From positions 65,038,001 to 65,102,000 of the forward strand of contig OX597817.1 in NCBI GenBank assembly GCA_951406725.2: a stretch of 64,000 nucleotides of DNA, read 5' to 3'. Below are positions 9,557 to 32,654 of this stretch, in pieces (position 1 is the first letter of the stretch; each line of letters starts with the position of its first letter). The position numbers and the translations under genes were made by a program. The notes below the pieces were generated by a model that saw only the letters and a program-made list of their open reading frames with translations, was not told the DNA's origin and ran no database searches. This stretch comes from Octopus vulgaris. Taxonomy: Eukaryota.

Positions 9557-12500
9557 ATGATTAAGTTGGGCTGTATAAATGTGCGTGGAATGGGGTCGAA
9601 ATGGAAACAGGCTTGCTTGCTGGACGACCTCAGGACACACAGAATAGATGTAGCCATTGTCACCGAGTCCAAGATGAGAGGAACCCAAGCGTTCTCGCAT
9701 CTTCTCAATGGTTACGAGAAATTTATTTCTCCTAGCCGAGGAGGAAGTGCAGGCGTGGCAGTCCTTATCAGGAAGAACTTGGACTTACAGGTAAGTACTG
9801 TCTTTATGGACCCAGAAGGTAGGCTGGTTGTCCTCGATGTAACTCACGTGAGTAAGCAGTCCTTCAGGTTGGTAGCTGTTTATGCTCCTAATGAGGGTAG
9901 GCAGACTGGTTTTTATCGGAACTTGGAGCACTTTCTAGTGACGTCTAAAACGGTAGTATTGGTAGGGGATTTCAACACTATCATCGATGCGCGGATAGAT
10001 AGTGTGGGCTCGTCTGATAGAAGGGGGAATCTTTGCCTTAAGGGTCTACTGACGAGCTTTAATCTAGTAGATCGGTTTCGAATGGATGAGCCGAGCATTC
10101 CACAGTGGACGTGGAGTAACAATGACGGCTCACGCAGATCGTATATAGATAGGGTATTTGTTAAAGAACGAGATAGGAATAGCATTAGCTGTCCACAATT
10201 TTGTATTGTGCCTTACACGGATCACAAATTAGTGACGTGTGAGGTACATGTAGATAAATGCCATAGACAGGGACCCGGATACTGGAAAATGAACAAGTCT
10301 ATTTTGGCTTGTGAAGCTTTCCGTAACCGGATTATGGAATTAGTCCAGAGGGCATTATGTGGAACCATCATTAATAATAGATGGTGGATCGCCCTCAAAA
10401 GAGCCATCCGTTTGGAGTCCATTAGATTTAGCAACCAGCTAAGTTTAGATAGGACTAGAATAGAGGGCGATTTAGTTAAGAACTTAGACGAGGCAATGGG
10501 ATCTGGCTGTGCATCTAAAGTGTTAGCAGAGAGAACGATCTTGTACCGTCACCTCAATGCCAAGCATGAAGGATGTAGAGTCAGAGCTAAGCTACGTGCA
10601 GTGAAACGAGAAGGTATTAATGTTGCCGGATGGGCACGTCGTGTGGAGAGTCAGAAGGGCAAAAAGTCCTCTATTAAGTCTTTAACTGACGAACAGGGAC
10701 GCAAAATCTATGGACAGGAGGAGATACAGAATGTCTTTCAACAGCATTTCGCTCGGTTGTTTGGGGAGGGCGATCCACTCGAGCGAGGGGAGGACTTACA
10801 GAACTTCCTAGCTTGTGGGCCTCGGCTCTCGCCAAGCAGAGCGGAACGCTGTGAAGGACCGATTACTCCCGCGGAGGTAAGAGGGGTTTTGGCTGAATGC
10901 GCCCGGGAAAAGTCGCCGGGACTGGATGGTCTGCCCTATGAGTTTTATTGTTGTATGCCGGACTTGTTCGGGGACATACTGGCAAGCGTCTACGCAAACT
11001 GGCAACAGAATGGGAGGATTCCCAGTTCTGTGAGCCGGGGAGTTGTGACGCTGATCCAGAAAGACCCGAGCAAGGGGGATAATATTAGTAATTATAGGCC
11101 CATAACTCTACTTAATGTAGAGTTAAAGATTTTGGCCAAGGTGTTAGCAGAAAGGTTGAAGGTCTTCATGGAAAAACTTGTCGGAAAGGCACAGACATGT
11201 GCAATCCCAGGCAGGTCGATCGAAGATAATCTCCACCTTCTACGCTACACTATAGACAGGGTAGGGCAATTAGCCGGCAAAGGAGGGGCATTGGTCCATT
11301 TAGACCAAAGTAAAGCATTTGATAGGGTAGATCATCAGTACCTGGCGACGGTTCTCGAAGCGGCTGGGCTAGGTCCTGACTTTCGCGGGTGGATATCAGC
11401 TATGTACAGCGGTATCAAGTCCACAGTCCAGATAAACGGTTACTTAACGGAACCGTTTTCGATTAAGCGTTCAGTTCGTCAAGGATGTCCCTTGTCCCCT
11501 CTCCTGTACGTTTTGGCTCTTGAGCCATTGCTGCGGAAGTTGGAGACGGTGAGATGCAATCCTAATGAAATCGGATGCGGTAAGTCTGTTTCTGCGTATG
11601 CGGATGACGTCACCTTCATCGTGTCCAACGAAGCACAACTAACTCGTGTAGAAGGTGCTCTCCGAAGATACGAAGCGGTGGCTGGGGCAAAAGTTAACAA
11701 GGACAAGTCCACTGGTTTGCGCCTCGGCACCTGGAGGAACAAGCCGATATCGTCCAGTGTTGTTGGACACTGGACAGATGGTCCTGTTAAATTGCTTGGA
11801 GTTTGGTTTGGTTCAGACTCCCAGACGGAGAAAAATTGGAGCGAGGTAGTGACCAAGGTAGAAGCCATAGTTCGGGAGTGGTCCGGAAGGCATCTTTCCT
11901 TGAAAGGGAGGGCGGAGGTGGTACAGGTGTTTATAGCATCTGTAATCACCTATCGCCTGACTGTCGTGCCTTGCCCCGATTTGTGGCTAAGCAAGTTGGA
12001 TCGACTCCTTTTCCGCTTTTTGTGGAAGGGAGGAAAGCCACTTGTAAGGCGCTCCGTGTGTTGCCAGGAACCACTAAAGGGTGGGCTGGGGATGCCTTGG
12101 TTAATGATGCGCAGGCATGCGCTGAGACTGAGACATCTCTGGTTTCACCTGGAAGGTGATAAGGTGTGGAGTCCGCTGGCAGATAATTTCTTCCCGCAAC
12201 CGGACTCTATGGAGAGATTTAAACCCGGTTTCATTAAAAGACGGAACCTGACTTTATGGCAGAAAGAGTGCCGACAGGCACTCTGGCTGATCCACAAGAT
12301 AGGCAAAGCCGGCTGCGGGAATACCACCTCGACATTTTATAGAAGGATGGTAGAGGCAAAAAATGACGACGTCCTAAGAGGGGCTCTGGGGTTCGATGAG
12401 GATCAACTATCCGACCTGTTTAAGAAGACTTTCAAGCCGGGGTATTTGGACAATTAACAAAAATCCCTGACTTGGCAGTGCTATAGGAATGCTCTACCTG

Positions 12501-17934: not shown

Positions 17935-18674
17935 TGTTAACATCGCTGTTTTCGTCCGCCACTATAAAGGCTTTTTCCATTGCGCCAGAGAAAAAATTTG
18001 TTTGCTTGTTATCAGTCGTAAGACACTGTTGTTTTCACCGTTAATGCTTCTGTATTTCATGTTTCTGTATTCCATTATTGTTTTTTGTTTTTTTATATCT
18101 GTCCCTTTTGCTGTCCTGGTGTTCGTATGCATTCGATCCTTCTTCCAGGAAATCTACGCTTCCAGCTTAGTTTTTCTAATGCTCGTTGCTTGGTTTTTCT
18201 TGGAGGGCTGGCCGTGATCTAGTAATCTCAAGATTAATCAGCCGAAATTACTACGATGATCCGGTTCTTGACTGAAGACTGAGGGTTTCGAATGTCCTGT
18301 CCGTGTTTATTGTGTCGTCTTCTAAGAGTTATACGTTCTTGTCCATGTTGTATTTTTCTACATACCTTAACATATATTCCAGGCGCCCCGTACCCCCCTT
18401 AACATTTATGTGAGCACATATTCTTAATAATTGGTACGACTCTCTGTTTGTCTCTCTCTCTCTCTCATTTTTACTTGATCTGTCCCCCTCTCTCTCTTTT
18501 CTCTCTACTCATCCTCTTTTTCTCTTCTCTTTCCTCTGATTCTTTGGTCTAGTCTTCCACTACCCTCCTATTTCTTTGTCTCGCTCTGCACTCACAGGTC
18601 ATTCTTCGACACCCATCCCTTCTCCTCTCTGATTCCTTCTTTCTCTCTCTTCTCTCTCTTTGTTGCGTTTGTCC

Positions 18675-18708
<34 letters not shown>

Positions 18709-19532
18709 TTTGCTTCTCTTTCTTTTCTTTTCCCTCTTCTCTGTCACGTGACTGTTGGCCGAAATCTGCCTTTCAGCTTCTGACCCTCGTTCTGTTAACA
18801 TCGCTGTTTTCGTCCGCCACTATAAAGGCTTTTTCCATTGCGCCAGAGAAAAAATTTGTTTGCTTGTTATCAGTCGTAAGACACTGTTGTTTTCACCGTT
18901 AATGCTTCTGTATTTCATGTTTCTGTATTCCATTATTGTTTTTTGTTTTTTTATATCTGTCCCTTTTGCTGTCCTGGTGTTCGTATGCATTCGATCCTTC
19001 TTCCAGGAAATCTACGCTTCCAGCTTAGTTTTTCTAATGCTCGTTGCTTGGTTTTTCTTGGAGGGCTGGCCGTGATCTAGTAATCTCAAGATTAATCAGC
19101 CGAAATTACTACGATGATCCGGTTCTTGACTGAAGACTGAGGGTTTCGAATGTCCTGTCCGTGTTTATTGTGTCGTCTTCTAAGAGTTATACGTTCTTGT
19201 CCATGTTGTATTTTTCTACATACCTTAACATATATTCCAGGCGCCCCGTACCCCCCTTAACATTTATGTGAGCACATATTCTTAATAATTGGTACGACTC
19301 TCTGTTTGTCTCTCTCTCTCTCTCATTTTTACTTGATCTGTCCCCCTCTCTCTCTTTTCTCTCTACTCATCCTCTTTTTCTCTTCTCTTTCCTCTGATTC
19401 TTTGGTCTAGTCTTCCACTACCCTCCTATTTCTTTGTCTCGCTCTGCACTCACAGGTCATTCTTCGACACCCATCCCTTCTCCTCTCTGATTCCTTCTTT
19501 CTCTCTCTTCTCTCTCTTTGTTGCGTTTGTCC

Positions 19533-19566
<34 letters not shown>

Positions 19567-20082
19567 TTTGCTTCTCTTTCTTTTCTTTTCCCTCTTCTCT
19601 GTCACGTGACTGTTGGCCGAAATCTGCCTTTCAGCTTCTGACCCTCGTTCTGTTAACATCGCTGTTTTCGTCCGCCACTATAAAGGCTTTTTCCATTGCG
19701 CCAGAGAAAAAATTTGTTTGCTTGTTATCAGTCGTAAGACACTGTTGTTTTCACCGTTAATGCTTCTGTATTTCATGTTTCTGTATTCCATTATTGTTTT
19801 TTGTTTTTTTATATCTGTCCCTTTTGCTGTCCTGGTGTTCGTATGCATTCGATCCTTCTTCCAGGAAATCTACGCTTCCAGCTTAGTTTTTCTAATGCTC
19901 GTTGCTTGGTTTTTCTTGGAGGGCTGGCCGTGATCTAGTAATCTCAAGATTAATCAGCCGAAATTACTACGATGATCCGGTTCTTGACTGAAGACTGAGG
20001 GTTTCGAATGTCCTGTCCGTGTTTATTGTGTCGTCTTCTAAGAGTTATACGTTCTTGTCCATGTTGTATTTTTCTACATACC

Positions 20083-20086
<4 letters not shown>
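17935..20086 (+). repeat. Tandem array of about 2.5 essentially identical 858-bp non-coding units (Penelope-LTR-like or retrozyme-like)
   Basis: GTTAACATCGCTG at 17936, 18794 and 19652; ORF track repeats with period 858; (TA)n on both flanks. Confidence 0.92.
18210..18294 (+). ncRNA. Permuted (pseudoknotted) hammerhead-like motif; further copies at +858 and +1716
   Basis: TAGTAAT(18220-26)/ATTACTA(18247-53) hairpin; 20-nt loop C-TCAAGA-ttaatcagcc-GAA; downstream TCTTGA-CTGAAGA (18266-78). Confidence 0.6.
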
Positions 20087-30900: not shown

Positions 30901-32380
30901 TAAGAAGGGTGGGTTTAAGACGATTACATCGACCCTACTGCTCAGTTGGTACTTATTTTATCGACCCCGAAAGGATAAAAGGCAAAGTTGACTTCGACGG
31001 AATTTGAACTCAGAACGTAAAGATTGACAAAATGATGCTGCTAATTTTCTTGGTGTGCTAACTATTCTGCCAGCTCACCACCTTAACAGCCACTGTAATA
31101 TTAATTACAACCCCGGCGTGCTAACGATTTTGTCAGCTCGCCACCTTATTTAGAATATAATACCGGGTCTTCATATTGTTTGAGAGAACCTACGTATGGA
31201 ATAAGAAAACGGAATGGTTCATGACTGAAACATCTTTGATTCATATGTCTGCTCCATTAGAGCTGACTCGAGACTAAACAACAACCAAAACTGCAATCAT
31301 CTGGACTTTCCTACCCGCCTACCTGCCTACCTGCGTCCCAGATCAGCTCTGATCGAGCAGAACTATGATCAAGTGTGTTCTCTCTGTCTTTATTTTCAAT
31401 GAGAATCACATTGTCCAATGTCTCTGGACAATGTGATTCTAGAGCTAGATGTTACTTGAGGAAGATTACGTTTGTTATTACTAACCAGTAGAATGACCAG
31501 GTAGAGACCCTGGGCTTGGGTAAACAATGGAACATAAGTAGTTAATTGATGATGTAGGTGCAATACCTCTGCCTTGTTAAGTATGGGAGAGAGTAATTTT
31601 TCCTACTGTTCCGTCTATTGTTTTTTTAGTCACAACTCATCTGTGATCAAGCTGGGATATAATAAATTTACCTTCTCGGAAAGTTAGTGGTGATTCAGTT
31701 TTCTATTTTTTTCTCTTTTACTTTACCTTTTATTTGCTCCAATTACTGGATTGCGGCCATACTGGAGCATCGCCTTGAAAGATTTTAGTCGAACAAGTCG
31801 ATACTAGTACGGGGATGTAAACAAACTAACACCGTTTATCAAGCGGTGTCGGGACAGATACAAACACAAAGACACGCACACATACCTGTTCACTGTTCAC
31901 TGACAAAATTCCGTGCAGCTCGGAATTAAATGTTGAAGTGAATCTAACGGTTTTTGTATGTTTCTTAAATGACTTATAAACACCTTTCATGCTGCAATTG
32001 TTTTTGTTCCAGCATACAATCCCAGACCAGGTCAATTGCTATGCATGTACATCTCCGTAAGTATATTAAAAGTTTTTTTATTAGTCAATACCGTGTACTA
32101 CTGTGTTAGCGATACACTTAAATCGTGTGTTAAGGTCATCTCCGCAGACATTCTATAGAAATTATAGCCAGCACTGGTTTTGGTTCGACGTTTCGTATCC
32201 GAGACGTCAGATGTAAAAAAAACAATGATATCAAGGTTGAAAAAATGGATAATGGGCGTATATACCATTTTACAGGAGTTTTTGCTCCTCCAGCAGCACC
32301 CATCTAACCCATACGTATATATACACGCGCACACGCACACACACATACACACACTTTTATTCTTTATATATATATATTGG

Positions 32381-32455
32381 AGCAATCTCGAGTATAACCA
32401 GCCGAAATTGCAAAGATAATCTGGAACTCGACTGAGGAGAGAAAACTCCAAATGA
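32381..32455 (+). ncRNA. Permuted hammerhead-like motif, divergent homolog
   Basis: GCAAT-C-TCGAGT-ataaccagcc-GAA-ATTGC ... ACTCGA-CTGAGGA; three compensatory pair changes relative to the 18220 copy. Confidence 0.6.
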
Positions 32456-32555
32456 CCCGTCCCTGTTTTCTTTGTATCGTCTATCTGGATATTTTATTGT
32501 CCCTTTTTTGTATCACCTAACTGTCTGGATATTTTGCGTTTTTGTCCCATTTTGT

Positions 32556-32654
<99 letters not shown>

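Follow-up and report, generated by a model that had tools for sequence, protein, structure and literature searches.

A hammerhead-like core opened between A9 and G10.1 in non-coding repeats of Octopus vulgaris: covarying stems of a probably self-cleaving RNA

The window examined here is a stretch of 64,000 nucleotides (nt) of the Octopus vulgaris genome (assembly GCA_951406725.2, contig OX597817.1, positions 65,038,001 to 65,102,000, forward strand), and the subject is a repeat family carrying a motif that resembles the hammerhead ribozyme. The repeats are non-coding and lie head to tail, with one motif per unit and a unit length of 700-860 bp. As seen in Table 1, subfamily A is represented by a tandem array and subfamily B by a single truncated copy, called the 32381 copy below. 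The core elements CUGAnGA, GAAA and NUH are present in 4/4 window copies, and zero matches to Rfam at the gathering score were obtained within the window. A first look at the genome, of 2.8 Gb and rich in microsatellites, gave 1,155 candidates for the copy at 18220 (subfamily A), of which all 40 that were scored are identical, and 888 candidates for the 32381 copy, of which the 40 scored have identities of 93-100% (93-97% for the 39 besides the top one). Judged from these identities, subfamily A is young and subfamily B is older. A shared-frame pattern found 6,235 exact matches genome-wide, compared to 0 for the control.

Table 1. Repeat copies and parts of the motif in the window
Feature	Positions	Strand	Remarks
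Head-to-tail array of subfamily A (family D17), 858-bp non-coding unit, in (TA)n	17935..20086	+	three complete motifs
Outer helix X, 5' strand	18130..18142	+	predicted partner 18281-18294, directly after CUGAAGA; duplex -17.1 kcal/mol
Complete motif 1	18206..18278	+	stem II 5' strand GGCUG 18206-18210; predicted cut 18227/18228; CUGAAGA 18272-18278
Complete motif 2	19064..19136	+	identical to motif 1
Complete motif 3	19922..19994	+	identical to motif 1
5'-truncated repeat copy, subfamily B	32376..32558	+	~183 bp, bounded by (TA)n runs
GGA of kink-turn-like internal loop with 32412-32417	32379..32381	+	tandem GA/GA in 76/80 copies
Block S, with stem III strand GCAAU and the AUC cleavage triplet	32382..32387	+	predicted cut after 32387
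Stem I strand 3' of predicted cut, UCGAGU	32388..32393	+	partner 32426-32431
Block G: stem II 3' strand CAGCC, GAAA, stem III strand	32399..32411	+	stem II partner absent in this copy
Interaction helix, 3' strand	32418..32424	+	partner mostly lost in this copy
Stem I strand and CUGAGGA core (C3-A9)	32426..32438	+	no stem II strand after it
Outer helix X, 3' strand	32439..32454	+	partner lost in this copy; duplex predicted in full-length copies

The copies of the two subfamilies in the window were aligned without gaps, anchored on CAGCCGAAA. The alignment agrees with the changes claimed in an earlier note on this DNA, by which stem III passes from GTAAT/ATTAC (18222-18226 with 18247-18251) to GCAAT/ATTGC (32382-32386 with 32407-32411) and stem I from TCAAGA/TCTTGA to TCGAGT/ACTCGA (32388-32393 with 32426-32431). 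The three compensatory pairs that it named (U-A to C-G, A-U to G-C, A-U to U-A) are likewise found, with no single-sided change in either stem, and AUC, CAGCCGAAA, CTGA(A/G)GA, the 20-nt span and the 25-nt spacing from GAA to the core are kept in both copies as it stated. There are 16 differences among 60 alignable columns. Stems I and III account for 6 of these in 22 columns, all of them belonging to complete compensated pairs, and 10 further differences lie outside the stems. The chance that 6 changes would fall as 3 whole pairs among 11 is 165/74613, or about 0.002, a value in which complementarity is not yet demanded; the window copies alone amount to a single comparison between two subfamilies. 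A point missed by the note is that the first 10 motif columns, comprising the 5' strand of stem II and most of one interaction-helix strand, have given way to (TA)n in the 32381 copy. Truncated at its 5' end and without the upstream stem II strand, this copy is likely unable to fold in cis and likely inactive. It is a record of the structure of its master, not of present selection, and matters solely as a witness of covariation.

For the comparison across the family, 30 loci and 55 regions were taken from 100 listed of the 6,235 matches and tandem neighbours were added to give 88 copies, after 10 identical subfamily-A copies and duplicate rows had been set aside. The search pattern fixed CUGA, GAAA and stem II (GGCUG) and placed no constraint on stem I, stem III or the interaction helix. 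In the 69 copies of 73 nt, the three pairs comprise 197 Watson-Crick, 2 G-U and 8 mismatched cells, and 61/69 copies keep all three; a majority of copies with uncompensated mismatches, which the note had named as the outcome that would speak against it, was not found. Over 54 distinct sequences, 95.4% of cells are paired and 7 pairs change on both sides, compared to 14-48% pairing in slid controls. In stem I, 4/6 pairs are compensated between the subfamilies, and in the interaction helix 90.2% of cells are paired and 2 pairs change on both sides. The covariation score was reached by 0/500 shuffles. It could be argued that the subfamilies differ at matching positions by chance, through inheritance alone: related sequences can beat shuffles, and the two-sided pair count was matched by 24/500 shuffles and the pair-type count by 468/500. 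Since relatedness inflates covariation scores, the changes were mapped on a tree of 80 copies (8 of other length dropped, core columns included). Changes on branches of at least 3 copies end paired in 21/24 cases, compared to 22/61 on branches of 1-2 copies (Fisher p 2e-5), which is the pattern expected if masters were selected as RNA and copies decayed after insertion. This contrast between internal branches and tips argues against inheritance alone, as do families with unrelated stems that keep their pairing; because these families are independent, chance was already unlikely, and we regard it as extremely improbable. The covariation check that the note had proposed for copies of both subfamilies therefore favours its claim of selection on RNA structure, a claim supported by these sequences at the family level, on replicating master elements, but not for the truncated 32381 copy itself. 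Just beyond stem I, columns 29 and 60 (window 32394 and 32425) change on both sides and stay mismatched (U.U in 53/69 copies, A.A in 10/69).

The pseudoknot of stems I and III proposed in the note stands as far as its pairs covary, but the structure is larger and also needs an upstream stem II strand and the interaction helix. CAGCC has its partner in GGCUG, which lies 33 nt upstream, and the strand after GGCUG pairs beside stem I. In type-SGC hammerheads (HRIMA-1 and variants), by contrast, CUGAnGA and stem II are assumed to be inseparable in the accessible parts of the defining paper (Eckert et al. 2023, PMC10085705). If the octopus motif were an ordinary member of this type, with stem II directly after CUGAnGA, the 32381 copy would be complete. 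The S-G-C order would fit, and the CUGA after the core of subfamily A could pair with UCAG with CC bulged. However, a stem II of at least 2 pairs 3' of CUGAnGA was found in 0/88 copies, and the bases after the core differ between the subfamilies without compensation, so this reading is already contradicted and is very improbable. With an unbroken block C in none of the 88, the motif is not a type-SGC member as that paper defines it. The stem II partner being upstream, the chain of the core is interrupted at the A9/G10.1 step, and the layout, as read from the sequences, is that of the four SGC helices with this one break, not plain type-SGC. Because GGCUG was fixed by the search pattern, the invariance of stem II in the 88 copies proves nothing in favour of this layout, and independent support for the upstream strand was needed. 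Among subfamily-B segments found by similarity, 25/32 carry the upstream strand and the remaining 7 are truncated (a filter allowing 1 mismatch passes 26, one of them by chance; 3 of 35 rows were spurious and removed).

The same layout is found beyond the two subfamilies. Spacing and layout are unchanged in a second family, whose stem II is GACAC/GTGTC (346 matches versus 2 for the control), and stem II covaries between the families (GGCUG/CAGCC versus GACAC/GTGTC). The GACAC-family motif matches the 3' end of Naiad_Obim, one of the Naiad Penelope-like elements (PLEs). A third family (family D) has 1,145 matches; its layout lies about 300 nt after an open reading frame (ORF) in L186, L198 and L183, in most copies the stem II partner is shortened, and the flanks are not (TA)n. 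Pfam gave no significant match for the pieces of this upstream ORF, which we take from its zinc-finger, RHN and PD..E-like motifs to belong to an RLE-type long interspersed nuclear element (LINE). Insertions of subfamilies A and B sit in (TA)n, and in the accessible parts of the Naiad paper (PMC8557442) Naiads have (TA)n targets, no canonical hammerhead, and 'HHR_core' and 'HHR_half_core' cases outside every descriptor. The comparison with Naiads covered part of the 54 consensuses in its supplement. The full layout was seen by eye in the 3' ends of Naiad_Obim, Naiad_Plae, the entry preceding Naiad_Plae (from the sheet order, probably Naiad-2_Movir) and one more entry, and a partial layout in that of Naiad_Esco. 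Several consensus 3' ends thus have the same four-helix layout as the octopus repeats, although the accessible text proposes no structure for them. The nematode Naiad excerpts have the usual core order.

In full-length copies, the strands are ordered as helix X, hairpin H, stem II 5' strand, interaction helix, stem III with AUC, and stem I, followed by the stem II 3' strand with GAAA and stem III, the interaction helix, stem I with CUGAnGA, and helix X. Hairpin H lies directly before the stem II strand and beats shuffles by 2 kcal in 74/88 copies of the main sample, 23/30 of the GACAC family and 9/20 of the third family. In helix X, the bases after A9 pair with the strand before hairpin H, by 3 kcal over shuffles in 18/20 copies of the third family. 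Helix X and hairpin H are predicted to hold A9 beside the unlinked G10.1. According to the accessible parts of two earlier papers, an extra base at A9/G10.1 is tolerated in known hammerheads (PMC3705267, PMC4209133). The hairpin H of subfamily A carries a short internal duplication. Between stem III and the interaction helix lies the GA/GA loop, presumably of kink-turn type; in subfamily A (18220-18226, 18247-18256) UA replaces GA of this loop and could lengthen stem III to 7 pairs. Nested folding, a method that cannot model pseudoknots, did not recover the knotted structure and did no better than shuffles (z 0.49, -1.58, -0.15). Minimal PLE hammerheads cleave as dimers or in trans between tandem units. 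The octopus motif could similarly cleave solely as a dimer or in trans, with a neighbour supplying strands; the units lie head to tail, and the A9/G10.1 split would permit strand exchange. A stretch of 73 nt within a single unit nevertheless suffices for all four helices, and the closure of helix X is local; we consider obligatory cooperation of this kind quite improbable.

The repeats are best explained, with fairly good confidence, as carriers of an S-G-C knotted hammerhead core with an upstream stem II partner, which would cleave the transcripts of a family of non-coding retroelements; among its members, the 32381 copy is truncated and likely inactive. Under such a mechanism, transcripts of the 700-860-nt tandem units would be cut after AUC into monomers, and cut, uncut or circular RNAs would be copied by the reverse transcriptase (RT)/endonuclease of a Penelope-like element, probably a Naiad. 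This enzyme would prime at a fixed site about 143 nt past the cut and insert into (TA)n. The compensated pairs would then be the record of selection in the RNA cycle, with copies decaying once inserted.

The genomic ends of the copies provide a possible footprint of cutting. Over 31 overlapping loci of subfamily A there is a single 3' end, about 143-150 nt past the predicted cut and in (TA)n, and the 5' ends are scattered, as expected of target-primed reverse transcription. At the junctions to (TA)n, 102 copies start at the predicted cut, compared to 10 that start 1-3 nt upstream, where the microhomology is better. On C1, each of the other positions lacking AT microhomology has 1-4 junctions, versus 13 at the predicted cut (hand counts). 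These counts are suggestive of a 5'-end footprint of cutting.

Several observations weigh against a cleaving RNA with this layout. The commonest 5' junction, seen in 45 of the first 100 matches listed, lies 9-11 nt downstream of the cut in an AT-only stretch; on C1, 25 junctions are found there versus 13 at the cut, and among the junction loci of subfamily B 6/23 are at the cut versus 9/23 at 10-12 nt upstream. The downstream peak could represent a cut end trimmed back to the AT-only stretch, or microhomology alone. Stem II of the third family has at least 5 pairs in 3/20 copies and mostly 3 pairs, one position of the interaction helix is A.C in 26/80 copies, and helix X passes in 42/88 copies of the main sample and in 0/30 of the GACAC family. 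The layout was not seen by eye in the 3' ends of Naiad_Adux, Naiad-1_Skow and Naiad_Dcar among the supplement entries compared; two of these three are listed as incomplete. In contrast to Naiads, subfamilies A and B have no ORF linked to them in the 3-kb loci examined, nor was a sequence link to a Naiad ORF found, no genome search with a Naiad protein having been made; the mobiliser is therefore inferred. A PLE RT fragment in L087 was considered as the family's own and rejected; it is antisense, separated by (TA)n and treated as a separate insertion. The junction peaks of equal or greater height at other positions and the weak stem II of the third family would suit a structured RNA that is not catalytic, perhaps hammerhead-derived and acting as an RT signal or in RNA stability, in which the covariation is real and nothing is cut. 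Yet every core base is kept across families with different stems, U16.1 is present in 79/80 copies, position 17 varies and is never G (80/80), and the junctions show a tenfold step at the predicted scissile bond. A non-catalytic role is thus judged unlikely, and a self-cleaving RNA is preferred.

The putative self-cleaving RNA can be compared with several known systems. With type-SGC hammerheads (PMC10085705) it has in common the S-G-C block order, the pseudoknotted stems I-III, the full core, a short linker between stems I and II and an interaction helix beside stems I and II. It differs in that CUGAnGA and stem II are separated, the chain ends lying at that step, and in that the octopus copies are animal genomic repeats with the additional helix X, hairpin H and kink-turn-like loop, while the type-SGC examples all come from metatranscriptomes (Suppl. 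Note 1, PMC10085705). Metazoan retrozymes without long terminal repeats (non-LTR) likewise consist of non-coding units in head-to-tail order, each unit with one hammerhead, and mobilisation by PLEs is proposed for them; however, they carry type I hammerheads in units of 150-450 bp, compared to the knotted split core in 700-860-bp units here (PMC7229834; bioRxiv 10.64898/2026.07.22.740005). They are also expressed as circular RNA. The literature searched, largely outside subscription journals and with supplements in part, contained no report of a split-core wiring, nor of SGC-type ribozymes in the genomes of animals.

A wider proposal, to which we give moderate credence, is that the motif would represent a seventh natural hammerhead wiring, active in animals, whose order is permuted non-circularly and whose core, interrupted at the A9/G10.1 step, is held together by an outer junction. 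In this view it would be the missing ribozyme of many Naiads and would also have been taken up by a LINE and by retrozyme-like repeats without coding capacity, while the 5' ends of genomic copies would preserve its cut site. If the motif cleaves, the assumption that hammerhead block C admits no interruption would be broken. Non-circular permutations would also move from environmental RNA contigs into animal genomes, in thousands of copies, and the apparent lack of a Naiad ribozyme would be explained, offering a direct test of the role of PLE hammerheads. The layout would escape the standard descriptors for types I-III and for the six permutations, so other genomes may hide it. A metagenome scan (40/64 parts) gave 120 matches; stems I and III reach at least 4 pairs in none of them and 3 pairs in 2. 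Judged by eye, neither an HDV-like, twister or pistol fold nor a hammerhead on the minus strand fitted the motif.

Other features of the family and of the window were observed. Contigs from the sequencing runs X16, X18, X19 and X20 (organisms A-D) hold subfamily A-like and B-like sequence; the family is therefore not limited to one species label. These contigs span the stretch in question, though such data carry no information on RNA ends or strand. A CACGTGAC box at window 18744-18753 also occurs in the L007 and L087 units, is kept in units of subfamilies A and B, and is possibly a promoter element; CACGTG boxes resembling it lie near Naiad 5' ends in the accessible part of the supplement of PMC8557442. 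In L079/L080, two motif copies stand head to head on opposite strands, 450 nt apart, like inverted PLE insertions. On the plus strand at window 8071-12500 there are two long ORFs, one of 433 amino acids (aa) with a zinc-knuckle-like motif and one of 974 aa with an endonuclease-like domain at its start, which we presume to be an L1/Tx1-type LINE. At window ~595-670, CTGATGA cores lie on either strand of an inverted repeat, which resembles a head-to-head Penelope-type stub.
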